Assembly (NCBI GenBank): GCA_944383295.1
Contig: CALWOW010000020.1
Location: 1 to 56,173 of the forward strand
Origin: an uncultured Clostridia bacterium
Lineage (GTDB): Bacteria; Bacillota; Clostridia; Christensenellales; UBA1242
Direction of reading: 5' to 3'
DNA: 56,173 bases
Made by a program: the position numbers and the translations under genes. Shown piece after piece: positions 3,088 through 56,173 of this stretch (within the stretch, counting starts at the first letter, position 1; every line of letters starts with the position of its first letter). The notes below the pieces were generated by a model. The model was given only the letters and a program-made list of their open reading frames with translations, was not told the DNA's origin and did not search any database.

Positions 3088-3094
3088 AAAATAT

Positions 3095-3121: not shown

Positions 3122-3136
3122 ATATTAGGAGTGTAT

Positions 3137-8387: not shown

Positions 8388-10358
8388 ATGGAAGATAAAA
8401 AATTTGAATTAGTGTCAAATTATAAGCCAACGGGTGACCAACCACAAGCAATTGATAAATTAGTGGAAGGTGTAAATGATGGTTTGAGAGAACAAGTGCT
8501 GTTGGGGGTAACGGGCAGTGGTAAAACTTTTACAATGGCGAATGTTATTGCAAAGCTAAATAGACCTGCGTTAGTTTTGGCGCATAACAAAACGCTAGCA
8601 GCTCAACTTTGTAATGAGTTTAGAGAATTTTTTCCACACAATCGAGTGGAATATTTTGTGAGTTACTATGACTACTACCAACCTGAAGCGTATATTCCTA
8701 GTAGTGATACTTATATTGAAAAAGATTTAGCGATAAATGATGAAATTGATAAATTGAGACACAGTGCAACCTGCTCTTTACTTGAACGCAGAGATGTAAT
8801 TGTTGTCGCTTCGGTGTCTTGTATTTATGGTTTAGGCAACCCTGAAACTTACTACAATATGGGGCTTAGTCTTAGAGTTAATCAAGAAGTTGATATGCGT
8901 AAAGTAATACAAAAATTAATCTCTATGAGATATGAAAGAAATGATGTCGATTTTGCCCGTTCTTGTTTTCGATTGAAAGGTGATACATTAGATATATTTC
9001 CTTCATATAGTAGTGAGGTTGCTATTCGTGTTGAGTTTTTTGGCGATACTATAGAAAGAATATTTGAGTTTAATCCTGTAACAAACAATAAAATTAATAG
9101 TTTGGAGCATTTTCTGCTTTTCCCTGCGACACACTTTGGTGTTAGTGATGAAAACCTTGCTGTTGCACTTGAAGAGATAAAAAACGATGCTAAAATTGCA
9201 GAAGAACAATTCACTGCACAAGGAAAGTTAATTGAAGCACAGCGTATCAAGGAAAGAGTGGCTCACGATGTCGAAATGATACAAGAAATGGGATATTGTA
9301 ATGGTATAGAAAATTATTCTCGATATTTTGACGGAAGAAAGCCGGGGGAAGCCCCTTATGTTTTGCTTGATTATTTCCCTGACGATTTTATCACTTTTGT
9401 CGATGAATCACATATTACATTACCTCAAGTACGTGGGATGTACAATGGTGATTTGGCGAGGAAGAAAAATTTGGTTGAGTATGGCTTTAGGTTGCCATCG
9501 GCTTTTGATAATAGACCTTTGACTTTTGAGGAGTTTGATGAGAGAATAGGACAATTAATTTGCGTTTCTGCTACTCCAGCAAAGTACGAATTAGATAATG
9601 CAGGACAAGTTGTAGAACAAATAATTAGGCCTACAGGATTGGTTGACCCAGAAATTGAAATTCGCAAGACAAAAGGGCAAATTGATGATTTGATGGGTGA
9701 AATATTCAAAACCGTTGAACAACAGGGTAGAGTACTTGTTACTACTCTTACTAAACGCATGGCAGAAGATTTGACTACATTTTTTATGGAACACGGTATT
9801 AAGGTTAAATATCTACATAGCGAGATAGATACTTTGGAACGAATTGAAATAATCAACGGCTTGCGTTCGGGCGATTTTGATGTAATAGTAGGTATAAACT
9901 TGTTGAGAGAGGGGTTGGATTTACCTGAAGTACGACTTGTCGCAATATTAGATGCAGATAAAGAAGGATTTTTACGAAGCGATACGTCTTTGATACAAAT
10001 TATAGGTAGAGCTGCTAGAAATGCAGATGCTCGGGTAATTATGTATGCGGATAACATGACTGATAGTATGAAAAGAGCAATCGATGTGACGGAACGTCGT
10101 AGAAAAATTCAACAAGAATACAATAAACAACACAACATTGTGCCAAAAACTATTGTGAAAGATATTAAAAACACTATTGAAATTACTAAAAAATTAGATT
10201 ATACTAAAGATGATATAAAGACAAAAGATTTGAGGGCTGAGATAGATAGAATAAAAGGTTTAATGCAAGTTGCTAGTAAAAATCTCGAATTTGAAAAAGC
10301 AATTGAATTACGTGAGCAATTAAATTATTTGCGTAAATTATTAAAAGAGGAAAAATAA
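8388..10358 (+). CDS. uvrB: Excinuclease ABC subunit B
   Basis: GVTGSGKT Walker [11 protein letters not shown] beta-hairpin, DESH, C-terminal UVR domain. Confidence 0.98.
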
Positions 10359-13181: not shown

Positions 13182-13277
13182 ATCATACTTTTTTAGAAAT
13201 TTAATTTATATAAAAAAATTAAAGTTATATATAATTGCTTTTGAAAAACAAAGGGTAACAATATTAGGAGAATAAAT

Positions 13278-14078
13278 ATGACAATTGAAGAAATTGCAAG
13301 AATTATTAAAGCTAATCCCACAAATAACTTTATTTTCAATAATTTAGATACAAATACGAAGGATATTGTAATAGATTTACTCCTTGAAGTAGATCCAAAT
13401 GATTTTAAAGAACTTAACAGTGATGGCAAGTTCGAATTTTCTAGTTTACCAATTCCTTATGAAAAATTAGAAACGAAATCTGACCCTGAACATAATCTAA
13501 CATTCTCACATAGTCTTATAATAAAAATGCAAGAATTATTAAATAAAATAAATAGTCAAAATGAAAACTATGAATATCCTGCATTGTTTTTTCGCACTGA
13601 AAGTTACGATGAAAAATATAATAACGGGAAAAGTATGAGTAATAATTTGCATAAAACTAATTGTAGTTATGATTGGTTAGAAATAAAAAGATTACTTTCT
13701 AAAGTAAAAGATGGAAATGAAAAGAATTTTACAATTGCATTATTTCACACACATCCAAACCTTTTTGGAGAAAAATATGGGACTTTGTTTGAAAAGTATG
13801 AAAAACAATTTACTAAATTAGGCATAAAACCAAATGGGTTAAATATTTCACTTTCGGATATTTATGCAAATATGTATTTGGATAATATGTTAAAAGAAAA
13901 TCATTTACCGCAGATAGCAGAATCTATCATTTTAATGCATGATGGTCGTGTAATTTCATTTGTTACTAATAATGGAATAAATATTACCGAAAATAATACC
14001 CTAGAAAATATTGCTAAACAAACAGAGCAAAGAAAATTATCTAAAGACACTACAAATATAACTAGCATAACAAAATAG
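13278..14078 (+). CDS. Hypothetical protein with JAB/MPN+ (JAMM)-like metal-binding motif
   Basis: E..ALFHTHP...SLSD; AGGAG RBS. Confidence 0.55.
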   Translation: MTIEEIARIIKANPTNNFIFNNLDTNTKDIVIDLLLEVDPNDFKELNSDGKFEFSSLPIPYEKLETKSDPEHNLTFSHSLIIKMQELLNKINSQNENYEYPALFFRTESYDEKYNNGKSMSNNLHKTNCSYDWLEIKRLLSKVKDGNEKNFTIALFHTHPNLFGEKYGTLFEKYEKQFTKLGIKPNGLNISLSDIYANMYLDNMLKENHLPQIAESIILMHDGRVISFVTNNGINITENNTLENIAKQTEQRKLSKDTTNITSITK

Positions 14079-28112: not shown

Positions 28113-28381
28113 ACTGTGCAACCTTTTTTGTTGGGGAAAGATTAAGCCGTTTTTTAACTTAATGCTCCCGCAAGGCAACCTTATGGCACATACGGCACAC
28201 TCCTTAGTGCTGCTTGCTTCCGCACCTGACACGGTTCGCAGGGCAGTATTGCACAAGACCTTAACGTTCATCACATTAAACTAAACACTTGCCAAACCAA
28301 ACACACCACCGAGAAAGGCATTCGACCCTACTAAAGCGGATTGTAGGTACAGGACACCGCTAGCTTCCCGTCTAGCACAGT
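28113..28381 (-). ncRNA. ffs: Large bacterial signal recognition particle RNA (with Alu domain)
   Basis: Minus strand has GAACCGTGTCAGGTGCGGAAGCAAGCAGCA (S domain) and 5' CTGTGCTAGACGGG...GTGTCCTGTACC; 5' and 3' ends pair (ACTGTGC/GCACAGT); upstream TTGATT-17-TATACT. Confidence 0.92.
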
Positions 28382-43961: not shown

Positions 43962-44576
43962 ATGAAATTAAGCGAAAGCAGAACTTATGAAAATTTAGCA
44001 CGTAGTTACGCTGCTGAATGTCAAGCGAGGACAAGATATGAATTTATTGAATATGGAGCAAGATATAATGGTTATAAAAACATAGCAGATATAATCGATG
44101 AAATTGCTTATCAAGAATTTAATCACGCACGTATGTTTTATACATTTATACAAGATGGCGAAGACGAGCAAATAGACAATATTGATATTGTGGCAGGTTT
44201 TCCATTTAGAGAAAAATGGGATTTGTGTGAAAATTTGCGTCTAGCTAGTGAAGATGAAGATAAAGACGCAAAAGCATATATTGAATTTGCAAATATTGCA
44301 AAGGAGGAGGGCTTTCCTGAAATTGCGCAACTATTTTTAGATACTGTAGAAGTTGAAAAATATCATAAAATAGTTTTTAAAGAGTTGTATCAACAAATGA
44401 AAGATGGTACTTTATACAAAAAAGAAAAACCAGTCACTTGGATTTGTGCTGATTGTGGTTATATGGCGACAGGGACAGAGCCATGGGATGAATGCCCTTT
44501 GTGTAAAGCGAAAAGGGGTTCGGTAAAATTAATTTTAGAAGCGCAAAAAATTAGATATAAACATTCTACAAAATAA
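43962..44576 (+). CDS. Rubrerythrin family protein
   Basis: T.ENL...YA.E.QAR..Y, E..H diiron motifs, C-terminal W.C..CGY..CP.C; GGAGG RBS before ATG 43962. Confidence 0.9.
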   Translation: MKLSESRTYENLARSYAAECQARTRYEFIEYGARYNGYKNIADIIDEIAYQEFNHARMFYTFIQDGEDEQIDNIDIVAGFPFREKWDLCENLRLASEDEDKDAKAYIEFANIAKEEGFPEIAQLFLDTVEVEKYHKIVFKELYQQMKDGTLYKKEKPVTWICADCGYMATGTEPWDECPLCKAKRGSVKLILEAQKIRYKHSTK

Positions 44577-44707
44577 GCAAGCTACTGCTTGTTTTTTATT
44601 TTATAAAGATTATTACACAAAAATACAAATAGGTTATATTAATAGTTTTGTTTCAAATTAAACCATAGATATGTTTTATAAGACTTTAAAATTTTGTTCC
44701 GATGATT

Positions 44708-44905
44708 ATATAGTTAAATTATATAATAATTTATATTATGAAATTTGACACAGTTTTTAATCAAATAAAAAGAAAAAAGAAAAAACTCAAAGTCGAATAA
44801 AAAAATTCATAAACTTTGAGTTTTTCCTTTATTTAAGCCAAAATTGAATGGTGCCGAAGACCGGACTCGAACCGGTACGGGATTGCTCCCGAGGGATTTT
44901 AAGTC
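44708..44905. repeat. Left copy of a ~200-bp direct repeat (integrase 3' end + terminator + tRNA-Leu 3' half); the att core is 44849-44905
   Basis: Matches 55715-55924 apart from one missing 12-bp TTGACACAGTTT unit and about 4 substitutions. Confidence 0.95.
44849..44905 (-). pseudogene. 3' fragment of tRNA-Leu(TAA); att core duplicated by integration
   Basis: 57 bp identical to 55868-55924 except 44894; identity stops in the 5' strand of the anticodon stem. Confidence 0.9.
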
Positions 44906-44942
44906 ACAATAAAACCCCTTTTATAATGGCACTTTAAACAAC

Positions 44943-44965
44943 TTGACACAGTTTTTGACACAGTT
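44943..44965 (+). repeat. Tandem TTGACACAGTT repeats, putative integrase arm-type sites; partner pair at 55752-55774
   Basis: The same 11-mer occurs twice inside each end of the element and once at 44745-44755. Confidence 0.7.
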
Positions 44966-45038
44966 ATATTGAAAAATATAAACATTATTATTCAAACATC
45001 CTAATTTTTTAGGTTGTTTTTTATTTGCAATATTCTTT

Positions 45039-46193
45039 TTAATCTTCTATAAATATAGGGTCTAATTCTTCTAATTCTTTAATAGATACTTCGTTAGTTT
45101 TTTCTTTTAATTGTACTTTTGGTATATCATAATAATTGTTTATTAAATCTAATATAGAAGAACCGTTTTTTGTATTCAATACATAACTAGAAAAGTTGTC
45201 ATTATCTTTCTTTTGCTGTATTCCATCTAATTCAGCAAGTAATTTATCAAACTGCTCATTCGATAAATGTAATGTTTTCTTTTTGCCTTTCTTTAAATTA
45301 TATGTATGAAAATATGATTTAGAGCAATAAGGAACAGAAGACTTATCTTTATTCATATACTTTGATAAATAAAATATAACTTTATCAAAACTTGTTAAAT
45401 TATCGCGCGGGGTCAATGGTATTATACTACAAAACCCTAAATCATAAAAATCAGATAAAAAATTATAAATTTTATCACCTATTATAGTTTCTAACGGTTT
45501 CATATAATATTCATTTAAAACAGGTTTACCATTTCTCATTTTAATAGAACCGTCTTTATTTTTTCTAAATCGTTCCATATTAACCGCACGAGCAAGAATT
45601 TTACCAAGTAGGGCATTGCCGATTGCTCCGTGAAAATGTAATTTATTATTATCTTCGTGATACTCAATTACACTTAAAATCTTTATATCAGGATAATAAT
45701 ATTGTAATTTTTGTCTAAATTTCTTCCATGCATACTTAATAGATTTTTGGTTTGTACTATCTATTTTTTTAGGGTCAAAAGTAATAGTTATAAAATATTG
45801 CCAATCATTATTTTGACCGTATGATAGGAAACAGTCCAAAACACGTTTTAAACTTTTTTTTCTACTTAATTCTAGATTATGTACTGTTGCACGTTCATCT
45901 TCTAAACTTTTTTTCCTTAAACAATTATTTTCATCATAATACCACTTCTTTGTTCGTGGTCCTTTAGAATGATTACCTAAAACAGAATAATCTTCTTTTG
46001 TGCGGAATAATTCGATATTATTATTGTTTACACGCACAGTAGTATTTGCAAATAAAATTTTATGCTGTTTATTCAATTTACGAAAAGCATTAACAATACT
46101 TTTTTGATTATTAAAGTCTATATCACAAAAAGGACATTTATGTATATTCTTATTATGTAATAAGCATTCTCTACATAATTCTTTTAGTTCCAT
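45039..46193 (-). CDS. HUH-superfamily rolling-circle replication initiator
   Basis: Motif I FITITF, motif II LHFHG, motif III YLSKYMNK; N-terminal CxxC...CxxC. Confidence 0.88.
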   Translation of the reverse strand: MELKELCRECLLHNKNIHKCPFCDIDFNNQKSIVNAFRKLNKQHKILFANTTVRVNNNNIELFRTKEDYSVLGNHSKGPRTKKWYYDENNCLRKKSLEDERATVHNLELSRKKSLKRVLDCFLSYGQNNDWQYFITITFDPKKIDSTNQKSIKYAWKKFRQKLQYYYPDIKILSVIEYHEDNNKLHFHGAIGNALLGKILARAVNMERFRKNKDGSIKMRNGKPVLNEYYMKPLETIIGDKIYNFLSDFYDLGFCSIIPLTPRDNLTSFDKVIFYLSKYMNKDKSSVPYCSKSYFHTYNLKKGKKKTLHLSNEQFDKLLAELDGIQQKKDNDNFSSYVLNTKNGSSILDLINNYYDIPKVQLKEKTNEVSIKELEELDPIFIED

Positions 46194-46234
46194 TTTTACC
46201 CCTATTTTATTTAATTTGTTTAATTTTCTGCTTA

Positions 46235-46265
46235 TGTGATACCATTATCAAGTATAGGTATCACA
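46235..46265 (-). other. Putative double-strand origin (nick-site hairpin)
   Basis: Perfect 9-bp stem TGTGATACC/GGTATCACA; 13-nt loop reads TATACTTGATAAT on the minus strand (CTTGATA is the pC194/phiX174-type nick motif). Confidence 0.75.
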
Positions 46266-46268
46266 CCA

Positions 46269-46497
46269 AACTAGCAATAATAAATAGTTAAGCGGATAAT
46301 CACGGCACCGAACAAGTTCGGGGCCGTGATTAGATTTCCCGCTACGCTAATTATTAGTTCTTTGCTAGTTAAGCGGTGCCGGGATAGCGTCACCGTAGAT
46401 AATAGTTTACTTATCCTAACAGCCGTCAAGGAGCGAAGAACGGCATAGCCGTTCCGTTGATTTTTGCAAGCAAAAATAATTCGCTTTTATCCTTGAC
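46269..46497. other. GC-rich multi-hairpin region, putative single-strand origin and/or packaging signal
   Basis: AACTAGCAA/TTGCTAGTT enclosing TAATCACGGC/GCCGTGATTA; GTCAAGGA/TCCTTGAC enclosing GAACGGC/GCCGTTC and ATTTTTGC/GCAAAAAT. Confidence 0.6.
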
Positions 46498-46894
46498 CGC
46501 TTTCCATCGTATCACTTAGTACCGGCGTATCCATAGGTTTAACCACTTTTGGCACTAGTATTTGTGCTTCAGCAACCTCTTGTACATAACTTTCTTTTTG
46601 TAACCCTTTATTTTTTGTTTCATTCAATATTTCTTTACATTTTAACCATAACTTTTTATGACAAATACGCCATACAAAACTATGTGGCATTGTTTCTAAT
46701 GCTACTTTTAATTGCAATTCACGTTTAGATTGACGCAACAAAGGTTTACTATATAACTTTGAATATTTTTTCAAATTTTTTTCTACAAACTTAATAAATG
46801 ATTTAGAAGGGTTAACAACACCAAAGGAATCTGCCATTTTATCATATTCAGTATAAAAAAAGACAGTTAACTCACTAAAATTATTAATTTCCAT
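46487..46894 (-). CDS. Hypothetical element protein
   Basis: AGGAG RBS; overlaps the end of the ATPase gene. Confidence 0.75.
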   Translation of the reverse strand: MEINNFSELTVFFYTEYDKMADSFGVVNPSKSFIKFVEKNLKKYSKLYSKPLLRQSKRELQLKVALETMPHSFVWRICHKKLWLKCKEILNETKNKGLQKESYVQEVAEAQILVPKVVKPMDTPVLSDTMESGQG

Positions 46895-47744
46895 AATTTA
46901 TTACTCCTAATTCTTTTAATATACCCTTATCACGTTCCGCATTTTTCCAAAAACCTCGTGGGGCAGTAAAATAATGCGTATTATTAAACTCAACAAAACT
47001 ATCACGTGTAAATTGATAACCATCTTCAGTATAATAATCAACGCCACTATTATAAACATTTTGATAAAAAACGGGGCGATTACTTTTTGAGTTATAACAA
47101 GACAAAATATTAAAATCAAAACTATCAGTAATTTTTTTGCCATACTTCGCTAAATCTTTATTATCGTTAGAAGTTTGATATTTTTCTGCTATTTCACAAG
47201 AAGCAAATTCTGTCATGTGCCATTTTGATTTCGTTATTATTCCATATTCATTTTTTGTAAATTCTACTTTATCCATAACCAAAAAGCGTTCAGCAATGCC
47301 TCTAATGTTTAAATCTATATTTGCTAATCTTTGGCAAGCAAGATAAACATTATAATCATTATGCCTATGTAATTGATACCAATGATATACATCATCACGC
47401 AAATACCTAGACATACGACTATCATAATACCGTTGCGCCTCGTCTAAAAAAATATGTGAATACGGCGGAATAAAAGTAGTATCAAAAAACGGGTTATCCA
47501 ATCCTATACTAAAACCATCTATATAATATGTTTTTAATTTACGCCCAAAATGTATAGGGGTATCACAAAATACCAAATGTTTTTGTGGCGCTAAATCCAA
47601 ATTAAAACCAGTGCTATTTAATTGTATAAATTCACGCTTACAAGATAAAAAATCAACTCGACCATTAATCATACATTCTATAGCAATTTTTGCAAGATAG
47701 GTAGATTTACCAGCGCCAGGAAGACCACAAATACAAGTTAGCAT
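46884..47744 (-). CDS. Zot/pI-like morphogenesis ATPase (no TM segment)
   Basis: Walker A GLPGAGKS at the N-terminus, Walker B IFLDEAQ, HRH...Q....D..IR signature. Confidence 0.8.
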   Translation of the reverse strand: MLTCICGLPGAGKSTYLAKIAIECMINGRVDFLSCKREFIQLNSTGFNLDLAPQKHLVFCDTPIHFGRKLKTYYIDGFSIGLDNPFFDTTFIPPYSHIFLDEAQRYYDSRMSRYLRDDVYHWYQLHRHNDYNVYLACQRLANIDLNIRGIAERFLVMDKVEFTKNEYGIITKSKWHMTEFASCEIAEKYQTSNDNKDLAKYGKKITDSFDFNILSCYNSKSNRPVFYQNVYNSGVDYYTEDGYQFTRDSFVEFNNTHYFTAPRGFWKNAERDKGILKELGVINYGN

Positions 47745-47771
47745 ATTTACCCTCATTTTAAATATAAAATA

Positions 47772-47800
47772 TTGACTTTTTTATTTTTTTTGTATATAAT
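47772..47800 (+). promoter_or_regulatory. Sigma-A promoter antisense to the element's main operon
   Basis: TTGACT-17 nt-TATAAT. Confidence 0.7.
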
Positions 47801-47806
47801 AATATA

Positions 47807-47878
47807 TAGACAAATATCTGATGACATTTTATGTCTGTGGGTATCAATTCCCAGTGAATAGATATTTGTCTTTTTTTT
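47807..47878 (+). ncRNA. Candidate ~70-nt structured small RNA
   Basis: Starts right after the promoter; 12-bp closing stem AGACAAATATCT/AGATATTTGTCT encloses two hairpins; ends in a T8 run. Confidence 0.5.
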
Positions 47879-48212
47879 ATTTATACTTCCTACGATTATT
47901 TTTATATTTTCTTATTTTGGCACGAACCTTTGGCATATCACTTTCAGAAAAATTAAAATTTTTTCTTACACTAGAATAATTATTCTTTTTACTCGTTATT
48001 ATCCCATTTCGCAAATATGATTTATCAATTTTATTTTTTTGAGGATTTTTATCTAAAAGAATATTTTTCTTGCCAAAAGTATATTTTCGATGAGTTATTC
48101 CTAAACTATGATATTTATTAGACTCTTCTTCGAATACATAATTAATATGTTTTGTATTATAATTATAGCGGAATTCATTTTTAGAAAATCGCTTTTTTTT
48201 ATTTTTTCTCAT
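47877..48212 (-). CDS. Small very basic protein, possible PemK/MazF-fold RNase
   Basis: AGGTGG RBS before ATG 48212; pattern H..YV....Y..LGITH...NI.L..NP....SY....FS..D..KV resembles PemK-like spacing (inference). Confidence 0.45.
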   Translation of the reverse strand: MRKNKKKRFSKNEFRYNYNTKHINYVFEEESNKYHSLGITHRKYTFGKKNILLDKNPQKNKIDKSYLRNGIITSKKNNYSSVRKNFNFSESDMPKVRAKIRKYKNNRRKYK

Positions 48213-48268
48213 ATTCACCACCTAAATAATGGTACGAGGTTTTTTAAGATACCTCGATAAACTTTTAA

Positions 48269-49474
48269 TTATTCACCATATGCGTGACCATAAAAATCAC
48301 TATATTTTTTTACATAAGTTAAATATTGTTCGTCTTGCGCATATTCAGGGTGTTGTAATATTAATTGTTCATAAACTTCATCGACAAAGATATACGTAGG
48401 GCAACTATCAAAACAATAAATATAATTATTAATTGTTGCTTCAGGTATTGATTTAAAAATTATTCGTGAAAAACTACAAGCATTTTCAGCGCCCCACATT
48501 ACACCTTCGCCAATTGCTTCAATAGTTTGCAAACTATAAGGTAATTCAAGTGTAAAATCAGTTTTTACATAAACATTGTTTAAATTTGAAACTTGTGTAA
48601 CACCCTCATTAATTATAACTTTAGATAATGTTTGATTTTCTAAATCATAATTTAAATAAGCATGAAATGCAGTAAAATCTACTTGTTCTATGTAAGAAGA
48701 AGTTGTATATTCAGTACCTTTAATAGTATCAGGATAAACATAAATTAATTTTTGTGTAGCAGTATCTACAAGAGTTCCATCCATATTTTCATAAGTACCG
48801 TAAATTTTATTATCTTTAGGAAAATTAATTTCCTTTACATTTTTACCTAAATAGCGAATATTTACTTCTTCGTAATTTGTAGGAATATTTACTACTTCAA
48901 CTGTATCGCTTAAACAATCAACAGCGGTTACTTCATAATCATTACCAGATACATACAAACGCTTTTTACCTAAATGAGTAATAGGGAATGCATTCTCAAT
49001 GCGACCTAACGGTAAAACTAATTTTTCATCTAAATCTCTCAAAGATTTACATACTATTTCAGTTTTATCCGCATATATAAATACAAGATTAAATTGTTCT
49101 ATATCGAAGTCAGTCCCATGGTCAAAATCAGGAGATGACATGATATTCATACGAATTTCTTCTGTATATTCTAACAACTCTTCTAAATTATTAAATGTAT
49201 AATTTTGGTCTATCTCTTTATAACTGAAAGTTTCGGGCAAAGTGAGTACTGTTTCTTCACCGGTATAACCTTCAATCATCCACATAGCGTCATTATAACG
49301 AAATTTGTATGGAAGAGAATCAGCCTCAACTTCTGCAGGCTCTTCATTTGCGTTAAAAGTATTTTGTGTCCATTCCTTAACAGCAGGTACGGTAGCGTAC
49401 AGAACGCCAAAAATCACAGTACATATTGCTATAGCAACAAGTATGCTAATTACAGTTTTTAAAAAATAATTCAT
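48269..49474 (-). CDS. Membrane-anchored protein with degenerate BspA-type LRRs
   Basis: N-terminal TM; IEGYTG....LTLP, V.I.EGV..., LELP.SL..I; AAGGAG RBS. Confidence 0.7.
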   Translation of the reverse strand: MNYFLKTVISILVAIAICTVIFGVLYATVPAVKEWTQNTFNANEEPAEVEADSLPYKFRYNDAMWMIEGYTGEETVLTLPETFSYKEIDQNYTFNNLEELLEYTEEIRMNIMSSPDFDHGTDFDIEQFNLVFIYADKTEIVCKSLRDLDEKLVLPLGRIENAFPITHLGKKRLYVSGNDYEVTAVDCLSDTVEVVNIPTNYEEVNIRYLGKNVKEINFPKDNKIYGTYENMDGTLVDTATQKLIYVYPDTIKGTEYTTSSYIEQVDFTAFHAYLNYDLENQTLSKVIINEGVTQVSNLNNVYVKTDFTLELPYSLQTIEAIGEGVMWGAENACSFSRIIFKSIPEATINNYIYCFDSCPTYIFVDEVYEQLILQHPEYAQDEQYLTYVKKYSDFYGHAYGE

Positions 49475-49496
49475 AATAAACTCCTTTAAAAATATT

Positions 49497-50609
49497 TTAA
49501 TTAAAAGTATTTTCTTCTTTTATCTTTATTCTTTCTTGTATGGTATTCCAAACTGTATCCTCTAAATATTGAGAATAACATTCACTAGAAACATATATTG
49601 TTGTATCTTGAGGTATGTTTTTAACCGCTAATTCAGTTGCCGATACAAACTTATCAAAAATCAATGTTCCATGAAAGCCAACAAAACAGTGTTCACTTAT
49701 TTTAATACAATTAGGTAAATACAAATTTGTTATAGCACTTTCATAAAAACAATAATCACTATTAAAAAATTCAATTTTAGGTAAAGATAAATCACTTAAT
49801 TTTGTTGTTTTATAAAAAGCGTAATTACCTAAACTTGTACAATTAAGCAATTCAGTTGATACTAAATTAGATTGTCCGGCACAAGCATAAGATTTTAAAC
49901 TAGAAATTCCTTTGCTAGAAAATTCAGTTATTTGTCCTGTTAATATCAAATTAAGTTGCTCATCTTCTATTGTTTCACCATAATCAATAGTTGTATAATC
50001 ACTAGGTAAACTATAAACACGCCCAAAATCACGCCAAACACTATTATTTAAATAAGCATTAACAACACCGTTTTGAATATAAATATTAAAAGTATCATTG
50101 CATTCGAACAGAGAAGCGCTAGAAGAAATAGAGCAAAGAGAATTACCTGTTAAATAAATTGATTTTAAATTAGGACACCCTATAAAAGCGTTATTATCAA
50201 TATTTTTAAGATTATCAAAACGAACATACTCTAAATTAATACAATCACGAAAAGAGTAAGCAGGAATATTTTCAACATTAGGTAAATAAACACTAGTTAA
50301 ATTTATATTACCAGCAAAAGCATATTCGCTTAAATTTGAAACATTGCTTTTAAATTTAGTGTAATTATCGCTTAAGTAATTTTCTGTTATTGAAAGAACG
50401 ACCGGTTCAGGTTCTTCCGGGTCTATTGTTGGGTCTTCAGGTTCTTCAGGTGAATTAGGGTCTGTATCTGTAGGTTCTTCAGGTGCAGACTGTTCAGGAA
50501 CAAATACAGCATTAACCCAATTACGAACAACAGGGAATTGATAAGCAACAAACAAGCCAACTATTAAAACCACGGCACTAACTAAATAAGTCCATTTTGG
50601 TACACACAT
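49497..50609 (-). CDS. Membrane-anchored BspA-type leucine-rich-repeat (LRR_5) protein with Pro/Glu linker
   Basis: N-terminal TM, PEEP repeats, I...AF..C.NL..I.L repeats, IYV.....Y.....W caps. Confidence 0.8.
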   Translation of the reverse strand: MCVPKWTYLVSAVVLIVGLFVAYQFPVVRNWVNAVFVPEQSAPEEPTDTDPNSPEEPEDPTIDPEEPEPVVLSITENYLSDNYTKFKSNVSNLSEYAFAGNINLTSVYLPNVENIPAYSFRDCINLEYVRFDNLKNIDNNAFIGCPNLKSIYLTGNSLCSISSSASLFECNDTFNIYIQNGVVNAYLNNSVWRDFGRVYSLPSDYTTIDYGETIEDEQLNLILTGQITEFSSKGISSLKSYACAGQSNLVSTELLNCTSLGNYAFYKTTKLSDLSLPKIEFFNSDYCFYESAITNLYLPNCIKISEHCFVGFHGTLIFDKFVSATELAVKNIPQDTTIYVSSECYSQYLEDTVWNTIQERIKIKEENTFN

Positions 50610-50610
50610 A

Positions 50611-51915
50611 TTAACCACCCCCTCGATTGAATGGTAACGAAATCAATTTCCAAAGACCTAAAAGTATGTATTTTAAAATTTGAAACATAGCAACGAATAT
50701 CCAAGGTAATAATGGTACTAAAACAACCAATAATAAAATTAAAAGTAAAAGTTTAACAATTTTTTTCCACCAAGGTTCAGGTGGGTTATTATCAGGGGTT
50801 AAATCACCGCTTTGCTTATTATCAACTACGCCAAGATTATAAACTACACCGTTGGTTTCAAACTTTAATCGCAACAAAGTTACATCAGTAACTTCGGTAA
50901 CATATTCATAACTTGTAGCAGAATTTACCAATTGATAATCACTCTCATAAAAACGCAAAACCCATTGTTTACCCCTCAATATTTCTTTTGTTTCATTTGT
51001 CAAATTGTTTTGACTATCAGCAATAAAAGAAGTAACTTTTTCTATTCGCTGCCAATTATATTGTGTAGCAAACCAACCATGAGCGGAATTATTACCTTTA
51101 TCAATATCGCTTAATTTTACATTCTCTGTAATTAATTCACCTTCGCTATAACGATGACTACCTGTTAAATTTATATGATAAGTTACATCTTGTCGAATAT
51201 AGCTAATATCAACTTCCATTAATTTATCCATAGGTTTATCAGTATTAAATGCTACATAATGCGAGTCACACGCTTGATTGTATAATGTAAAACCGTTACT
51301 ATAACGGACAAAACCGATATACTTATCTGTAACTAAAATAGTTTCAGTATCTAAACAACTATAAGTAACTTGATTATCTACTGTAACGGCTGTAAACAAT
51401 TTACCAACTTCATAACTAACTTCACTAACAGTATTACCACCGCTAACTTGTTCATCTATCAAAACATTAAAAGGACGAAAAATAGAAACAATAGAATAAT
51501 AACGCATTAAATCAGGCAATATTTTAAAATCGTTTACCTTATATTTAAAAAACACACCATTAGAATTTATAAAAGTTAACGAATAATTTTTTGGGCTAAA
51601 ACTATCATTAATAGAAGTTGAAAAATTAATACTAGACGCTCTAAAATCTAAAGCACGCCCACTAGGTTGATAAACATAAACTAAAAGTTCGTTATCTACA
51701 CTTTCTGCTATTTGAATGACTTGTAATGAATAATCATTTTCGATTAAAGGATAATCGTTAATATTAAATGTTTCATCAGTTTGCAAATCTTCTAGAACAT
51801 TTGAATAAGTGGAATCAGCATAATACACGCCGATAGGAATAAATAACAACAAACACACAAATAATAATAAAAAGCAAATCGAAGATTTAAAAACTACTTT
51901 CTTTTGTTTTTGCAC
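50611..51915 (-). CDS. Secreted protein with C-terminal membrane anchor (spike/pIII-like topology)
   Basis: AAGGAG RBS before GTG 51915; signal peptide; beta-rich ectodomain; C-terminal PWWKKIVKLLLLILLLVVLVPLLPW. Confidence 0.7.
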   Translation of the reverse strand: MQKQKKVVFKSSICFLLLFVCLLLFIPIGVYYADSTYSNVLEDLQTDETFNINDYPLIENDYSLQVIQIAESVDNELLVYVYQPSGRALDFRASSINFSTSINDSFSPKNYSLTFINSNGVFFKYKVNDFKILPDLMRYYSIVSIFRPFNVLIDEQVSGGNTVSEVSYEVGKLFTAVTVDNQVTYSCLDTETILVTDKYIGFVRYSNGFTLYNQACDSHYVAFNTDKPMDKLMEVDISYIRQDVTYHINLTGSHRYSEGELITENVKLSDIDKGNNSAHGWFATQYNWQRIEKVTSFIADSQNNLTNETKEILRGKQWVLRFYESDYQLVNSATSYEYVTEVTDVTLLRLKFETNGVVYNLGVVDNKQSGDLTPDNNPPEPWWKKIVKLLLLILLLVVLVPLLPWIFVAMFQILKYILLGLWKLISLPFNRGGG

Positions 51916-52030
51916 GACTAACTCCTTAATTAAAATTAATGGTAACCTATTGCAAAAATAGGAGGTAAAAAAGCAATAGGAATGGTACAGCAACCACTAA
52001 AGCAGGTTAGACTGTTTACCGCTTTATGTA

Positions 52031-52405
52031 TTAAAAAGGTAAAGGTTCGTTCGTAGATTGTAACGCAGGTGTCATAGCAGTAACATCTACTCCATCAGAA
52101 TTGATTATTTGTCTAAATCTATAATCTTGCTTTCCGCCAAAAGTCAAAACATCGGCTGTTATGGTTACTTTTTCAAATCTTTTTAATTTAGTAATTAATT
52201 CTTCACAGTTAAAATTAGGGTCCTTAACGGAAGACAAATAATAAATTTCACCAGTACCTAATTTATCATTAATAACATCTGCTAAAATTGTTAAAGCAAT
52301 TTTCTTTGCGCCTGTTGGTTCATATTTACCTTCAGCAATTTTTCTTTGTTCATCTCTTAAACTTGCGCTTAATACATAAGCATTTTCAAAAATCATTTTG
52401 TTCAT
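52031..52405 (-). CDS. Putative single-stranded DNA-binding protein
   Basis: GGAGG RBS; beta-rich 124 aa; ends in EPLPF like bacterial SSB C-terminal tails; lies in a rolling-circle element. Confidence 0.55.
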   Translation of the reverse strand: MNKMIFENAYVLSASLRDEQRKIAEGKYEPTGAKKIALTILADVINDKLGTGEIYYLSSVKDPNFNCEELITKLKRFEKVTITADVLTFGGKQDYRFRQIINSDGVDVTAMTPALQSTNEPLPF

Positions 52406-52539
52406 AAGAACGCCTCCAAAAAAATAATAATTTCACCTACATAAATAGGTAATGGTGATAGATTTTTTATTAAAAAACCTACCAAAAAAGAAAATTAACC
52501 ACCATATATAAAAATCAAATTATTAAATAACAATAAACT

Positions 52540-52803
52540 TTACTTTATTTTTAAATTTTTAGTTTTACGCTTATAATTAGGATTACGATATTTAAAAGCA
52601 TGGTTACTATCTTTTGCATGCTCTAAATAACCAGCCCTAAAAGCGAGTTGCTCTTTATTCAATTTAATTTGCTTGCCCTTTTCATCCTTTTTAGCGTGTA
52701 AATCATTTGTATATGCTTTCTTTTCTTTGATTTCCTTAGCATATTTGAAAGCACGCTCAGACGGATTTAATAAAACTTGACCTGTTCTTGTAATATAAGA
52801 CAA
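52540..52803 (-). CDS. Basic hypothetical element protein
   Basis: AAGGAG RBS before TTG 52803 (ORF track extends to 52824). Confidence 0.65.
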   Translation of the reverse strand: MSYITRTGQVLLNPSERAFKYAKEIKEKKAYTNDLHAKKDEKGKQIKLNKEQLAFRAGYLEHAKDSNHAFKYRNPNYKRKTKNLKIK

Positions 52804-52930
52804 TTCAAAACACTCCTTTATCATATTTTTGCCATTAAAGGCAGTGGTAGAGTATTAAGGAATTGCACCTTAATTTTGGAAAAAGTTCAAAAACCAAAAC
52901 TAAACTTAGTACTCCATAAATAAAAATTTA

Positions 52931-53617
52931 TTATTTCATTTTTTCACGAACAAGCGAAAGAATATAATCACTTAAACTAGCAAATTTTTTATATTTCAAA
53001 ACTTGTTCTTTTATAAACTCATAAACATCAGCCGGAAAAACTATCGAAACATTAAACTTATCTTCGCAAGTTAAAGTATCTTTTTGCGGTTCTTCTATAT
53101 TGCTTTCTTCTATAACTTTATTAGGAGTAGAACCGCGCATAGTCTTTACATAATTACGAATATCTGCTCTAGTTGATTTATAATTTAATAAATTTAAACT
53201 AAACGCTTGCTTAATACTATCTAAACTAATAGGAAGCAATTCCTGTAGTTTTGATATACTATAATCTTTTAATTCCGGTATTTTAAATTTTTTGTCGCCG
53301 GCGACAAAATCTATAAACTTATTCGAAATTTGCAACAATCTATATATATACCGTTCTGATAAACCGAAAAATTTACCCAATACATCTGTAAACCGGTATT
53401 GATTTGTTATTTTTGCAACATTTACCGTACCGCTATCAATAAAAGTTGAACCTTTACAAGTCTTAAATAATAAATAAACATTACACAGTAAACCAAAATC
53501 ATCACGCAAATTACTTTTAAATATGTTTTCTAAATTTAACATATAGTTTTGTTGTTCTTTGGTTAAAGATTGATTAATACCACTAAAATAAGTATCTATA
53601 AAAAAATCACTTTCCAT
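52931..53617 (-). CDS. DUF3102-like protein with C-terminal ribbon-helix-helix-like domain
   Basis: FGLSER...R...I...F....YS.SKL.ELL pattern; C-terminal VSIVFP.DVYE.I.......SLSDYI..LVRE. Confidence 0.5.
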   Translation of the reverse strand: MESDFFIDTYFSGINQSLTKEQQNYMLNLENIFKSNLRDDFGLLCNVYLLFKTCKGSTFIDSGTVNVAKITNQYRFTDVLGKFFGLSERYIYRLLQISNKFIDFVAGDKKFKIPELKDYSISKLQELLPISLDSIKQAFSLNLLNYKSTRADIRNYVKTMRGSTPNKVIEESNIEEPQKDTLTCEDKFNVSIVFPADVYEFIKEQVLKYKKFASLSDYILSLVREKMK

Positions 53618-53738
53618 TTTGCTTTTCAAACCTTTTTATTCTCATATATTCCCATTGCTTTTCTAAATCAGGTCCAATAGTTTTCATTTTTGTTGCCGAC
53701 ATAATTTGTATATCGTTATTTACTTTCTTTTTTTCCAT
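53607..53738 (-). CDS. Small hypothetical protein (43 aa), not in the ORF track
   Basis: MEKKKVNNDIQIMS...EKQNGK*; overlaps the upstream and downstream ORFs in a coupled chain. Confidence 0.4.
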   Translation of the reverse strand: MEKKKVNNDIQIMSATKMKTIGPDLEKQWEYMRIKRFEKQNGK

Positions 53739-53832
53739 AACAAACCATATCCATATAATCTAACAACTTTTTTACTTTTGCATACTTGCTTTCTTTTAAC
53801 TCTATAACTTCACGAATTTTATTTTGTTGCAT
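53716..53832 (-). CDS. Small hypothetical protein (38 aa), not in the ORF track
   Basis: MQQNKIREVIELKESKYAKVKKLLDYMDMVCYGKKESK*; starts 1 nt after the stop of the 62-aa ORF; AGGT RBS. Confidence 0.45.
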   Translation of the reverse strand: MQQNKIREVIELKESKYAKVKKLLDYMDMVCYGKKESK

Positions 53833-53833
53833 T

Positions 53834-54022
53834 TTAAAACCTACTTTTTAATATCACTATTTGAAATTTTTCTTTACTACTTGTTTCACCCGCTTCAAGC
53901 ATTCTTATTAATTGTAATAGCATTTCTTCTTCGTCTTCTATTTGATTATGTTCGGAATTAATACTCTTATTTAATTCACTTTTAAAATTGTTTTCATTTT
54001 CTTCTTTATCTGGCTGGTTCAT
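53834..54022 (-). CDS. Small acidic hypothetical protein, first gene of the leftward operon
   Basis: AAGGGG RBS, ATG. Confidence 0.6.
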   Translation of the reverse strand: MNQPDKEENENNFKSELNKSINSEHNQIEDEEEMLLQLIRMLEAGETSSKEKFQIVILKSRF

Positions 54023-54045
54023 TTTTAAACCCCTTTTTATTGATT

Positions 54046-54178
54046 TAGATATTTTTTTTATCTACAAAAAACATTTTAGCAAAATAATTTATCTTTTGTC
54101 AAACATTTTAGATAAGTTTTTTAGATTTTTTATTTAAAATAGATAAATTATTGAAATATTACATTTTTGAATTATAAT
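54046..54178. promoter_or_regulatory. Divergent promoter/operator region (genetic switch)
   Basis: Leftward TTGACA-18-TAAAAT with extended TG (54102-54073); rightward TTGAAA-16-TATAAT (54151-54178); palindrome TAGATA-N7-TATCTA (54046-54064) and further TAGATA half-sites. Confidence 0.6.
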
Positions 54179-54195
54179 TTAATTGGAGGATAGAA

Positions 54196-54510
54196 ATGAA
54201 ATTAAAAGAATTAAGAGAACAAAAAGGATTATCCCAATATGAAATAGCACCTTTACTAAACATAAAAAGGGCAACATACGCAAATTATGAAACAGGAAAA
54301 ACACAACCAACAATAGAAATACTATGCCAAATAGCAGATTTTTACGGAGTATCACTTGATTATCTTTGTGACCACAAAACACAAGATAAACTTCAATTAG
54401 GATATTTAACAGACACACAAAAAATTGCTATTAACTTAATTTTAAAATTAAATGAAAATAACCTATTACAAACAATAGGATACTTGACTGCTCAAATTCA
54501 AAATCAATAA
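54196..54510 (+). CDS. Xre/Cro-C1 family HTH repressor
   Basis: LKELR...GLSQ.EIA..L.I.R..Y.NYETG...P......IADFYGVSLDYL. Confidence 0.92.
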   Translation: MKLKELREQKGLSQYEIAPLLNIKRATYANYETGKTQPTIEILCQIADFYGVSLDYLCDHKTQDKLQLGYLTDTQKIAINLILKLNENNLLQTIGYLTAQIQNQ

Positions 54511-54774
54511 ATATTAACATTTTTTTACATTCGTTTTATAATGCTTCTAAAATAGGAAAAATATTTTAGGAGTAAATTATGCACAACGAAGAAATCTTCA
54601 AATCTTTTTTAAAAGTTACTAGAAGAAGTAGAATCAGCAAATGAAACAATTCAAAAGGCTAACAAAATCTTAAAAGGTTACTTTGGTGGAATGTTGGAAG
54701 CCACACAAAAAGAAAAGAACAACAATAATAATGTTTATATTTTTCAAAATAATACATTAGGAGAATTAAGCAAT

Positions 54775-55755
54775 ATGAAAAATATAAGCAATAGAAAAGA
54801 TGGTCGTAAAATAATAAGAATACAAAAAGATAAAATTATTTATACAAGATACGCCAAAAACGAAAAAGAAGCAAAAACTAAAAGAAAAGAATTATTACTT
54901 GAAATAAAAAATAATCAAATTATAAAAATAAAATACAATTTTCACGAATGGTTAGATAACTGGTATATAACATATAAACAACCTTTTATAAAAGATGATA
55001 CAGCAAAAAAACTAAAAAGAATACTTGATAAAATAAAAAATGGAATAAAAAACCTAGAACTAACAAAAGTCAATACACAAATTATTCAAAATTATCTAAA
55101 CACTATACAAACAAGTCGAACAAAAGAATTTATCACATTATATTTAAATGCTTCATTGCAAAAAGCAGAAGACTTAAATATCATTACCAAAAACCCTTTT
55201 AAATCAGTTGTTAAAGACAAAAAATTAAACAATATAAGGGAAGGGTATAATTTAGAAGAACAAAAACAAATATTAAAAGCAATAAAAGGCACAGAAATAG
55301 AACCAATAATTTTAATTTATCTAGTAACGGGCATTAGAAAAAGTGAAATTGAAACAATAGATTTAGAAAAGGACCTAAATATAGAAAATAAAACTATAAG
55401 AATTTTAAGTGAAAAGAAAAGAGACAAAAAAAATCTTTACAGAGTAATTGATTTAACACAAGAAACCATAAATTTATTTATAAACAACAAAGATAAATTA
55501 AAACTTAAAAGCGATTACATTTATAGACAATTCAAAATTATACTAGACAAACTAAATATTCGTAGCGGATTACATTTGTTAAGACATACATTCGCAACAA
55601 ATCATTTTTATTTAGGTACACCATTAAAATTCATTAGCAGTTGGTTAGGGCACGAAACAATAGAATTAACACAAAATATTTATACGCATATTGATAGAAC
55701 TATAAAAAAAGAAGATATAGTTAAATTATATAATAATTTATATTATCAAATTTGA
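54775..55755 (+). CDS. Tyrosine recombinase/integrase (start uncertain; frame is open from 54613)
   Basis: N-terminal RKDGR arm-binding motif, TGIRKSE, H.LRHTFAT, LGH, IYTH. Confidence 0.95.
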   Translation: MKNISNRKDGRKIIRIQKDKIIYTRYAKNEKEAKTKRKELLLEIKNNQIIKIKYNFHEWLDNWYITYKQPFIKDDTAKKLKRILDKIKNGIKNLELTKVNTQIIQNYLNTIQTSRTKEFITLYLNASLQKAEDLNIITKNPFKSVVKDKKLNNIREGYNLEEQKQILKAIKGTEIEPIILIYLVTGIRKSEIETIDLEKDLNIENKTIRILSEKKRDKKNLYRVIDLTQETINLFINNKDKLKLKSDYIYRQFKIILDKLNIRSGLHLLRHTFATNHFYLGTPLKFISSWLGHETIELTQNIYTHIDRTIKKEDIVKLYNNLYYQI

Positions 55756-55924
55756 CACAGTTTTTGACACAGTTTTTAATCAAATAAAAAGAAAAATAAA
55801 AAAACTCAAAGTCGAATAAAAAAATTCATAAACTTTGAGTTTTTCCTTTATTTAAGCCAAAATTGAATGGTGCCGAAGACCGGACTCGAACCGGTACGGG
55901 ATTGCTCCCGAGAGATTTTAAGTC
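55715..55924. repeat. Right copy of the direct repeat; att core 55868-55924
   Basis: Matches 44708-44905; includes terminator hairpin AAAAACTCAAAGT/ACTTTGAGTTTTT. Confidence 0.95.
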
Positions 55925-55954
55925 CCTTGCGTCTGCCAATTCCGCCACTTCGGC
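55868..55954 (-). tRNA. tRNA-Leu (anticodon TAA)
   Basis: GCCGAAG acceptor pairs with CTTCGGC; GGCGGAATTGGCAGACGC D arm; loop CTTAAAA; long variable arm; GTTCGAG; encoded CCA. Confidence 0.97.
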
Positions 55955-55957
55955 ATG

Positions 55958-56032
55958 TGGAGGCGCCAACCAGATTTGAACTGGTGCATAAAGGTTTTGC
56001 AGACCTTGGCCTTACCGCTTGGCTATGGGGTC
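55958..56032 (-). tRNA. tRNA-Cys (anticodon GCA) with two acceptor-stem mismatches
   Basis: GACCCCA TA GCCAAGCGGTAAGGC C AAGGT CTGCAAA ACCTT TATGC ACCAG TTCAAAT CTGGT TGGCGCC T CCA. Confidence 0.85.
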
Positions 56033-56060
56033 AAAGTTTTCGAATGGCAGTACAAAGTTA

Positions 56061-56089
56061 ATATTAACATATAAAATTAAACTTTGCAA
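56061..56089 (-). promoter_or_regulatory. Sigma-A promoter of the tRNA-Cys/tRNA-Leu operon
   Basis: TTGCAA-17 nt-TAATAT on the minus strand. Confidence 0.65.
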
Positions 56090-56173
56090 GTATTTTACAT
56101 TAAAATTTACTTTTTATTTATATGATTTTTAAATTATAAAGGTGAAAAGCTCATTTTTTAAACAAAAAACCTA

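Follow-up and report, generated by a model that had tools for sequence, protein, structure and literature searches.

An 11-kb tRNA-integrated, inovirus-like element of a gut Clostridia bacterium without a small coat gene

What could sheath the DNA of a filamentous phage that encodes no small coat protein? The question is raised by an 11.0-kb element lying at a tRNA-Leu gene in a stretch of 56,173 nucleotides from an uncultured Clostridia bacterium (assembly GCA_944383295.1, contig CALWOW010000020.1), which as a whole is called the window hereafter. The source assembly totals 1.05 Mb in 48 contigs and is about 97% complete. A first-pass annotation, made from the sequence alone, had described an apparently intact rolling-circle, inovirus-like provirus without a recognisable major coat gene, and had proposed a capsid-less or membrane-vesicle element or a satellite using a helper's coat. 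According to the present analysis, the element very probably belongs to the temperate, integrating phages of the filamentous (inovirus/Tubulavirales) type, and its lineage is common in walled gut Clostridia-like bacteria with genomes of about 1 Mb. The absence of a small coat gene is real, and its slot after the gene called p460 is filled by two genes for N-terminally anchored leucine-rich repeat (LRR) proteins. The best explanation overall, which we hold with about even confidence, is a temperate phage of the inovirus type that builds its sheath from larger anchored proteins; that particles are made without any small coat protein at all is possible, and we lean somewhat to the other side on this point. 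The structural block consists of the following genes, given from p460 onward (compared loci are cited by L numbers):

50611–51915, minus strand: p460, 434 aa from a GTG start at 51915 supported by a ribosome-binding site (RBS), carrying a signal peptide, an ectodomain rich in beta structure and, at the C-terminus, a transmembrane hairpin
49497–50609, minus strand: LRR373, 370 aa from ATG 50609, matching PF13306 (BspA-type LRR) at 1.4e-19, its RBS within the last p460 codons
48269–49474, minus strand: p401, 401 aa, an N-anchored BspA-type LRR-like protein whose protein Atlas neighbours are LRR_5 clusters at 0.91-0.93
47877–48221, minus strand: a very basic 114-aa protein of a conserved family, with homologues in L004, L040, L042, L045, L047, L066, L071, L075 and L102
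46884–47756, minus strand: Zot/pI-like P-loop ATPase, 290 aa, matching PF05707 with 29.9 bits (cut-off 20.3) and phrog_197 at 1.5e-16
46487–46894, minus strand: p135, a conserved partner directly after Zot, which it also follows in L003, L004, L034-L042 and L049

No coat-like open reading frame (ORF) of at least 25 aa was found outside the larger genes on either strand of the element, in agreement with the earlier statement that no short hydrophobic ORF stands alone there. The hydrophobic small ORFs of the element all overlap real genes, in a different frame or on the opposite strand, among them one of 75 aa out of frame within zot (46916-47143), and translation of the gaps 47758-47847, 52402-52485 and 53607-53832 gave nothing coat-like. 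The small ORFs at 53.6-54.0 kb are indeed hydrophilic (43, 38 and 62 aa). A hidden Markov model (HMM) of the small-ORF family of relatives, described below, found no stand-alone match in six-frame pieces of 44001-56173 and nothing convincing across the metagenome-assembled genome (MAG), in which the best match (E 0.0097) fell within a 224-aa ORF. Structural proteins of 30-90 aa with a single transmembrane segment, as used by Roux et al. (2019), are thus lacking. Instead, the element encodes three membrane-anchored structural proteins, as had been noted, of 434, 370 and 401 aa when read from RBS-supported starts. The first, p460, has the same topology as pIII, namely a signal peptide and a C-terminal anchor, and is a candidate adsorption or minor coat protein. 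It was modelled by AlphaFold2 (AF2) from 18 sequences with a pLDDT of 87; the best score in the protein Atlas was 0.76, and its PDB fold neighbours in Foldseek, arrestin and integrin beta-sandwich domains with TM-scores of at most 0.15, were discarded as noise. The two genes after p460 both encode N-anchored BspA-type LRR proteins, and LRR373 occupies the slot where congeneric elements have a small transmembrane ORF. This protein is composed of an N-terminal transmembrane segment, an aromatic juxtamembrane stretch, an acidic Pro-rich linker and the BspA-type LRR domain. Both LRR genes are set within a tightly packed operon, where one gap measures 22 nt and one RBS falls within the gene before it, and the order continues from p401 to the basic 114-aa protein, Zot and p135.

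The content of this slot was then followed in the relatives of the element. Many of them carry a stand-alone ORF in the coat position, after the gene for a single-stranded DNA-binding protein (SSB)-like protein or after p460. Most relatives have such an ORF, of 55-98 aa with a single transmembrane segment, the layout being a short basic N-terminus, one long transmembrane segment, a conserved juxtamembrane motif and an acidic tail. This distribution of charges is the reverse of that of the classical inovirus coat, in which an acidic N-terminus precedes the membrane segment and a basic C-terminus follows it. With the HMM, built from five such ORFs, nine loci out of the 19 in the first-round comparison (16 larger loci, two MAG loci and one virome genome) were matched strongly (E <= 2e-13) and three more weakly; L003 4741-4968, L034 6400-6651 (minus strand) and L048 7258-7467 are examples of the family. 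It has no Pfam or PHROG match, and an 11-sequence profile searched against 1.84 billion representatives retrieved 170 clusters (50% identity) at E <= 1e-3, so that the survey defined a widespread family of small proteins. Another type of small protein was found in L191, a circular metagenome contig of 9,151 nt whose ends overlap by 55 nt, where a coat-like 55-aa ORF with an acidic N-terminus, a transmembrane segment and a basic C-terminus lies directly before p460. The order in this contig, i.e., the coat-like ORF, p460, a basic protein and Zot, resembles the gene order of Ff phages. Taken together, the small-ORF family and the L191 ORF imply that the group uses at least two unrelated small proteins, while some of its members apparently use none. 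Such coat-like ORFs in relatives indicate that the group is inovirus-like and that the present copy could be a replacement or deletion derivative.

Is the lack, then, peculiar to this copy? The sources examined numbered 115, made up of the window, 80 loci from metagenomes and 34 earlier ones, and in 19 of them p460 and Zot share a strand and lie no more than 8 kb apart. An automatic rule was applied to these from 2.5 kb upstream of p460 to Zot, and retained ORFs of 30-99 aa with one or two transmembrane segments and less than 30% overlap with larger ORFs. At least one small transmembrane ORF was found in 13 of the 19 loci and none in the remaining six, which are the window, L089, L101, L119, L123 and L140. 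Most of the candidates that passed the rule in L097 and L155 resemble antisense artefacts and are located far upstream of p460; inside its structural block, L097 has a further candidate of 39 aa. The structural block of bajarodino virus 12, a circular faecal-virome genome left outside the count because its genes straddle the origin of the record, has no small transmembrane ORF either. Besides, N-anchored proteins of 184-364 aa lie beside p460 in the loci that appear coat-less. Within the genus the lack looks like a module replacement, and across the wider group it recurs. The first-pass annotation had named a conserved small coat ORF in relatives as a refutation of its more exotic readings, and this refutation applies in part: such an ORF exists in the six congeneric loci and in nine first-round loci, but the lack recurs in others. 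In the literature, judged by title and abstract, no description of coat-less inovirus-like elements was found.

The larger proteins were also compared with the small ones. The first 53 residues of p401 could be aligned with the stand-alone 71-aa transmembrane ORF of L041 (18 of 56 positions identical, BLASTP E 4e-7 in a single comparison), which is itself a marginal member of the small-ORF family. From this, p401 might be a coat helix fused to an adhesin, which is put forward as a hypothesis and not as a finding. The corresponding idea for LRR373, a fusion of the coat-slot small ORF, was dropped for want of sequence support, its resemblance being positional and architectural. A metagenome scan with p401 returned no relatives, and a comparison of its residues 1-80 with shorter proteins gave no homologue, in a weak test where only one candidate shared words with the query. 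In loci of the same genus (L105 183-1292, minus strand; L104; L107), p401-like proteins adjoin LRR_5 proteins and very basic proteins of 71-72 aa; the p401-like gene of L105 is also near a 369-aa N-anchored P-loop protein and may belong to another membrane-protein element.

Several observations weigh against a sheath built from larger anchored proteins. Alignment by hhalign of p401 with the small-ORF family was weak (prob 27%, P 7e-4), that of LRR373 reached a prob of 3%, and BLASTP of LRR373 against the small ORF of L034 gave similarly weak values (E 0.014 and 0.11). Fusions are almost never seen in the family, since 149 of its best 150 matches stand alone at 47-118 aa. Proteins of about 400 aa resembling p401 also occur elsewhere in 3 of 300 genomes, beside LRR_5 and small basic proteins; therefore, p401 may simply be an adhesin. 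All six other p460-bearing loci of the host genus have the small ORF directly after p460, and the simplest history of the present copy is therefore its loss by module replacement. No transmembrane segment was predicted in Zot, p135 or any of their homologues examined, which leaves the coupling of these proteins to the membrane unexplained. We know of no characterised filamentous phage without a small major coat protein, and plectroviruses too have a designated major coat gene (ICTV profile, PMC8295915). Finally, the case consists of genes and contigs, neither single-stranded DNA (ssDNA) nor a particle having been seen, and the circular junction is absent from the contigs of four runs, although these contigs break at the repeats and cannot be expected to show one.

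These points lead to the main rival of a sheath of anchored proteins, a helper-dependent or defective derivative in which the block made of small ORF and adhesin has been replaced by the two LRR genes. Such a derivative would still integrate, excise and replicate, and would give particles only with the coat of a co-resident relative, or none at all. It would account for the small ORF being kept in exactly that slot by all six congeneric elements, for the widespread stand-alone occurrence of the family, and for the replacement of the structural block, which is a swap hot-spot (run X6, below) in a group of mosaic relatives. Besides, many genomes of the host family have 2-5 Zot matches, and the co-residence of a helper is therefore plausible. 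However, in the 97%-complete MAG Zot is matched just once and the small-ORF family not convincingly, and every other gene of the element is intact. The lack is also shared by five other loci of the 19 and by a circular virome genome, and near-identical copies persist in runs of two studies. On balance, we consider this derivative rather unlikely.

The assignment to the filamentous type draws on the remaining genes of the element, listed here from its right-hand side leftward:

54691–55755, plus strand: tyrosine integrase, 354 aa, matching PF00589 at 2.1e-13 and phrog_1 at 8.2e-40, its final ~40 nt lying within the repeat
54196–54510, plus strand: Xre-family repressor, 104 aa, matching HTH_3 at 7.5e-19 and phrog_8 at 2.8e-19
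54023–54195, no strand assigned: divergent control region that separates xre from the leftward operon, with outward-facing promoter-like sites
53607–54022, minus strand: the three small hydrophilic ORFs, first genes of the leftward operon, without family matches
52931–53629, minus strand: p232, a conserved early protein with a weak ParB-like match (phrog_4715, E 0.003) and 63-65% identity in L034 and L035
52540–52824, minus strand: p94, a basic protein in which an '...AYRAGYL...' motif is conserved, with homologues in L003, L004, L038, L039, L042 and L095
52031–52405, minus strand: p124, an OB-fold SSB-like protein with the C-terminus ...EPLPF (AF2 pLDDT 84)
46194–46486, minus strand: strongly structured non-coding region of 293 nt upstream of rep (DNA fold -59 kcal/mol)
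45039–46193, minus strand: HUH rolling-circle Rep, 384 aa, matching PF23343 (REP_ORF2-G2P) at 8e-11 and phrog_3419 at 1.3e-5

The integrase, Xre and Rep genes named in the first-pass annotation were all recovered by family matches, with the HUH and Tyr motifs intact. In an alignment of 11 Rep homologues, the residues of all three HUH-superfamily motifs (T136/T138, H186/H188 and Y275/K278/Y279/K282) are invariant. The nick hairpin proposed for Rep was borne out in one respect, as the gap upstream of rep is far more folded than its shuffles (z = -8.8; 0 of 200 shuffles as good), whereas the nick site itself was not identified; this 293-nt region is a candidate origin or packaging region, and its counterpart in relatives holds only GC-rich junk ORFs. 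The SSB-like gene was likewise upheld by the model of p124, whose PDB neighbours in Foldseek are mostly OB-fold SSB/PriB chains, with weak matches (E >= 6e-3, TM-score ~0.45-0.55). This protein has no Pfam match. Its C-terminal tip, which resembles the acidic-hydrophobic tip of bacterial SSBs, is kept in five homologues. Two of the best promoter-like sites of the control region face outward, at 54102-54073 on the minus strand and 54151-54178 on the plus strand (11/12 each), the total of such sites being no higher than in shuffles. An alternative genetic code was considered and found unnecessary, Table 11 giving long ORFs throughout.

The Zot/pI-like ATPase predicted earlier was established by its Pfam and PHROG matches and by a profile of 14 Zot homologues, which matches PDB 2r2a at 5.6e-12. 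We take this entry to be a Zot N-terminal domain, the depositor's name being just 'uncharacterized protein'. The Walker A/B columns are invariant in the Zot alignment. Neither p135 (Pfam and PHROG) nor the basic 114-aa protein (Pfam) has a family match, and the latter is a candidate DNA-binding or condensing protein. It is at the ATPase that a non-viral nature of the element has to be weighed, i.e., an integrative rolling-circle plasmid-like element whose P-loop ATPase serves another purpose and whose LRR adhesins are cargo for the host surface. No capsid gene is recognisable, LRR_5 proteins are typical bacterial surface proteins, and p401-like genes also occur outside the Zot elements examined, which speaks for such a nature. 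However, no Pfam or PHROG family of FtsK, VirB4/TraG-type ATPases or relaxases was matched at E <= 0.1 by the 10 larger proteins. The clustering with plasmid-type FtsK/VirB4 proteins that the first-pass annotation had named as a refutation was thus not borne out, the ATPase matching Zot instead. In addition, distant homologues of Zot, Rep and p460 are carried by small genomes from faecal virus surveys, and the LRR genes lie inside the tightly packed structural operon. A non-viral element is therefore very unlikely.

The element was next set beside described inoviruses. In the available text of Roux et al. (2019), inovirus-like prophages are detected with the pI-like ATPase as marker gene and with short one-transmembrane-domain proteins of 30-90 aa as a criterion (PMC6813254). 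The element has the pI/Zot ATPase and a rolling-circle Rep together with the SSB-like p124 (weak fold matches), and its 11.0 kb hold thirteen genes on one strand with xre and int opposite, most without a Pfam match. In gut Firmicutes/Clostridiales, the available text on 'Clade-1' inoviruses of the human gut gives genomes of 5.6-9.4 kb with 27-41% GC whose Zot domain stands alone, one of them having a tyrosine recombinase, in a set that Sugimoto et al. defined with a major-coat HMM (PMC8530359). As far as these texts describe them, both sets share with the element a small AT-rich genome, a Zot without fused C-terminal part, an HUH Rep and a Clostridia-type host; unlike the element, which has none, they need small coat proteins.

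With the Ff phages (M13/f1/fd), the element has in common a Rep, an ssDNA-binding protein, a pIII-like protein and a pI/Zot ATPase in one operon. In contrast, it has no equivalents of pVIII, pVII, pIX and pVI and no secretin, its ATPase lacks a transmembrane or periplasmic part, and it carries its own tyrosine integrase at a tRNA. No sequence or fold similarity was detectable between its structural proteins and solved phage proteins. As for Plectroviridae, which infect wall-less hosts, have small AT-rich genomes and are released by extrusion (PMC8295915), the resemblance lies in the small AT-rich genome and in the PF23343 'REP_ORF2-G2P' family of Rep, whereas the host of the element has peptidoglycan genes and there is no coat gene to compare with CoaB, the major coat protein whose similarity, along with that of maturation proteins, serves as a criterion in the ICTV profile. 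Indeed, two transpeptidase genes of the penicillin-binding protein type (PF00905) and four Mur-ligase genes (PF08245) were found in the MAG, from which the host is walled. When Zot, Rep and p460 were searched by tblastn in a collection of 50,697 phage records, no plectrovirus was retrieved. This search gave distant homologues only, in 9 records for Zot and 13 for Rep, all of them 5-10-kb faecal-survey genomes and nearly all 'bajarodino' or 'Dulem' viruses.

Bajarodino virus 12 (PQ006185.1) was obtained from rodent faeces and is a circular genome of 9,828 nt, placed in Inoviridae on deposition. It shares with the element a Zot (29% identity), a p460 homologue (31-34% identity; E 9e-58 in a small local database and 9e-50 in the phage collection), an integrase and a repressor, and an N-anchored 352-aa protein lies directly before its p460. 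It differs by a GC content of 0.36-0.55 and by the long basic tail in which its p460 homologue ends. No Rep homologue was found in it by BLAST against the proteins of the element, and no publication on bajarodino viruses was found. At 1980-3530 of this record (L002), where the rep gene is expected, is a GC-rich segment of about 1.5 kb without a convincing ORF.

The best viral fold neighbour of p460 is ORF1 (66.6 kDa) of the Acholeplasma plasmavirus L2 (NC_001447; Foldseek E 2.9e-5, prob 1.0, TM-score just 0.16-0.20), and it raises the possibility of a pleomorphic membrane particle of the plasmavirus or pleolipovirus kind, in which p460 and the N-anchored proteins would serve as envelope spikes, with the DNA condensed by the basic proteins and loaded into buds by the ATPase. 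L2 is an enveloped virus of a wall-less host. Both L2 and the present element are integrating elements of about 11-12 kb with membrane-anchored structural proteins, ORF1 also ends in two transmembrane helices, and it lies two genes before the P-loop ORF3, whose alignment to the Zot profile, across Walker A/B and an 'RH..IYL.Q' block, is weak (hhalign prob 27%, P 7e-4). That all structural candidates are membrane-anchored and that no small coat ORF is present would also suit such a particle. However, the TM-score of the ORF1 match is low, hhalign of p460 against ORF1 gave a prob of 1.8% and HMMER nothing. Neither ORF1 nor ORF3 matches a Zot family in Pfam or PHROG, and the PDB neighbours of p460 (TM-score <= 0.15) include no pleolipovirus or other fusion protein. 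The host is walled, L2 is annotated with DnaA-box origins and without an HUH Rep, and close relatives of the element have coat-like small ORFs, one of them in canonical inovirus order. The vesicle or plasmavirus-like alternative raised by the first-pass annotation is thus reduced to a weak lead, and we consider it quite improbable.

If the element is indeed an inovirus-type phage with a sheath of larger anchored proteins, its cycle could proceed as follows. The Xre repressor and the divergent control region would keep the leftward operon off; upon derepression, the integrase would excise a circle of about 11.0 kb, Rep would nick it in or near the 293-nt structured region upstream of rep, and the OB-fold p124 would cover the rolling-circle ssDNA. 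Meanwhile, p460 and the two N-anchored LRR proteins would wait in the membrane, where the soluble Zot-like ATPase and its constant partner p135 would drive assembly. On the reading we favour, particles are still made and the DNA would be sheathed by the membrane helices of the larger proteins, the N-terminal helix of p401 being the first candidate and the C-terminal hairpin of p460 the second, while the very basic 114-aa and 94-aa proteins may help to neutralise the DNA and the LRR domains would be displayed as adhesins. A broader claim, that a recurrent sub-lineage of Zot-encoding rolling-circle phages in walled gut Clostridia builds infectious particles without a small helical coat, sheathed by these helices of p460 and of p401-type proteins, either as a thick LRR-displaying filament or as a plasmavirus-like membrane particle, seems to us distinctly doubtful.

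In practice, filamentous phages are defined by their small helical coat, and the available text on the main metagenomic detector indicates that it uses such proteins (PMC6813254). Because current inovirus detectors require small transmembrane proteins, a sub-lineage of that kind would be systematically missed. If particles are made, they would add to the known ways of packaging ssDNA and provide a natural case of large-domain display on phage; if none are made, a common class of helper-dependent elements would be at hand. The lineage also matters for its hosts, with Zot in a third of the sampled family genomes (100/300) and an LRR-adhesin block that is swapped between near-identical copies.

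The integration of the element can be read from its ends, which comprise the following features:

44708–44905, no strand assigned: left direct repeat (attL side), with the integrase 3'-end remnant, one 12-nt 'arm' unit, the ~110-nt spacer and a displaced tRNA-Leu fragment
44849–44905: displaced 57-nt 3' part of tRNA-Leu, inside the left repeat
44940–44965, plus strand: tandem 12-nt units just inside the left end, also present at 55749-55774
55715–55924, no strand assigned: right direct repeat (attR side), with which the intact tRNA-Leu(UAA) overlaps by its 3' part
55868–55954, minus strand: intact tRNA-Leu(UAA), at the right end of the element

Two pairs of direct repeats were found, each with 98% identity: 44744-44905 and 55763-55924 (162 nt, spacing 11,019) and 44708-44758 and 55715-55765 (51 nt, spacing 11,007). 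The spacings differ because the right copy has one extra 12-nt unit, and both pairs are segments of a single repeat of about 200 nt framing the 11.0-kb element. The att repeats reported in the first-pass annotation were thereby confirmed, their extent being greater than had been stated. The repeat spans 57 nt of the 3' part of tRNA-Leu(UAA), a spacer of about 110 nt and the final ~40 nt of the integrase ORF. As the right copy runs from the tRNA 3' part through the spacer to the integrase end, the left copy is a displaced tRNA fragment with an integrase 3' remnant. A 'tRNA-Asn(att)' of 99 nt called by ARAGORN at 44849-44947 was rejected as a chimera in which element DNA is joined to the displaced tRNA-Leu fragment; Rfam makes no call there and recognises only the two genuine tRNAs at the right end. 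The tandem 12-nt units, which would flank the core in a circular attP, are candidate arm sites of the integrase. Hence the element shows the features of a tRNA-integrating temperate element, namely a tyrosine integrase beside an att repeat by which the 3' part of the tRNA is restored, and an unoccupied site within the population. Its GC is ~25-30%, that of the host region ~32%. Every gene is full length and its ORF lengths match those of its relatives, so that the earlier description as an intact-looking, tRNA-integrated element of about 11 kb holds.

Parts of the element were found in 12 runs, with at least half of the sampled words in 5 of them. The best four runs, labelled chicken gut metagenome, come from one study and three more from a second; no RNA run is among those listed with the element. 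The contigs of four runs were aligned to the window. In one contig each of X1 (366 nt) and X4 (997 nt), two runs of one study, 44740 is joined to 55748 with 11,007 nt skipped, which corresponds to an unoccupied site. These contigs differ from the right repeat copy, and also from the left copy, by one letter and one gap; they therefore represent an empty allele in the population, and that they arose by excision of this copy is not proven. Outside the element, the left flank (44708-44748) carries the integrase 3'-end remnant of ~40 nt, which is present in the empty-site contigs too. Therefore, either the tRNA-Leu site was scarred by an earlier integration or about 200 nt of attB are derived from the element. 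In another study, a variant from run X5 has 88 differences in a 2.4-kb piece (3-4% divergence), including an in-frame 9-nt insertion at 50409, in the acidic linker of LRR373, that keeps the reading frame. In the variant of run X6, 49632-51935 (LRR373 and p460) is swapped for about 1.3 kb of other sequence. The adhesin/adsorption block is thus a swap hot-spot between near-identical copies.

The prevalence of the lineage was estimated in the host family, where 100 of 300 other sampled genomes gave Zot matches (E <= 1e-3). All of these genomes are of ~1 Mb, the matches spread over 32 of 58 genera (the host genome being included in the genus count), and many genomes have 2-5 of them; p460 homologues were found in 22 of the 300. 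Among the first-round loci, the Zot-p135-Rep module recurs together with Xre and Int, while the structural genes are mosaic. A scan of IMG/VR with the Zot protein alone gave no relative, and with the Zot alignment one locus, on a 52.8-kb contig. The p460 profile retrieved 283 relatives from metagenomes, of which the best 80 were kept. In L043 (G043:C2 10000-29999), Zot occurs at 2418-3263 and again at 10980-11825, within identical element copies 8.56 kb apart that form a tandem prophage array.

The best 80 metagenome loci, mostly from human gut, are dominated by a second type of element with a p460 homologue and no Zot match (L090, L091, L092, L096, L099 and most of L112-L191). Its genes succeed one another as an N-anchored 159-185-aa protein, p460, a basic protein of ~115 aa, a 30-aa transmembrane mini-ORF, a 693-736-aa protein with 4 transmembrane segments, a PF23343 Rep and an HTH_38 + rve (IS30-like) protein; in L122, for instance, p460 lies at 8995-10422 and Rep at 12796-13812. 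In the 736-aa protein, only a Walker-A-like stretch aligns with the Zot profile (hhalign prob 1.4%). Elsewhere in the window, a large bacterial signal recognition particle RNA (RF01854, 154 bits) is encoded at 28114-28380 on the minus strand and fits a Firmicutes-type host.

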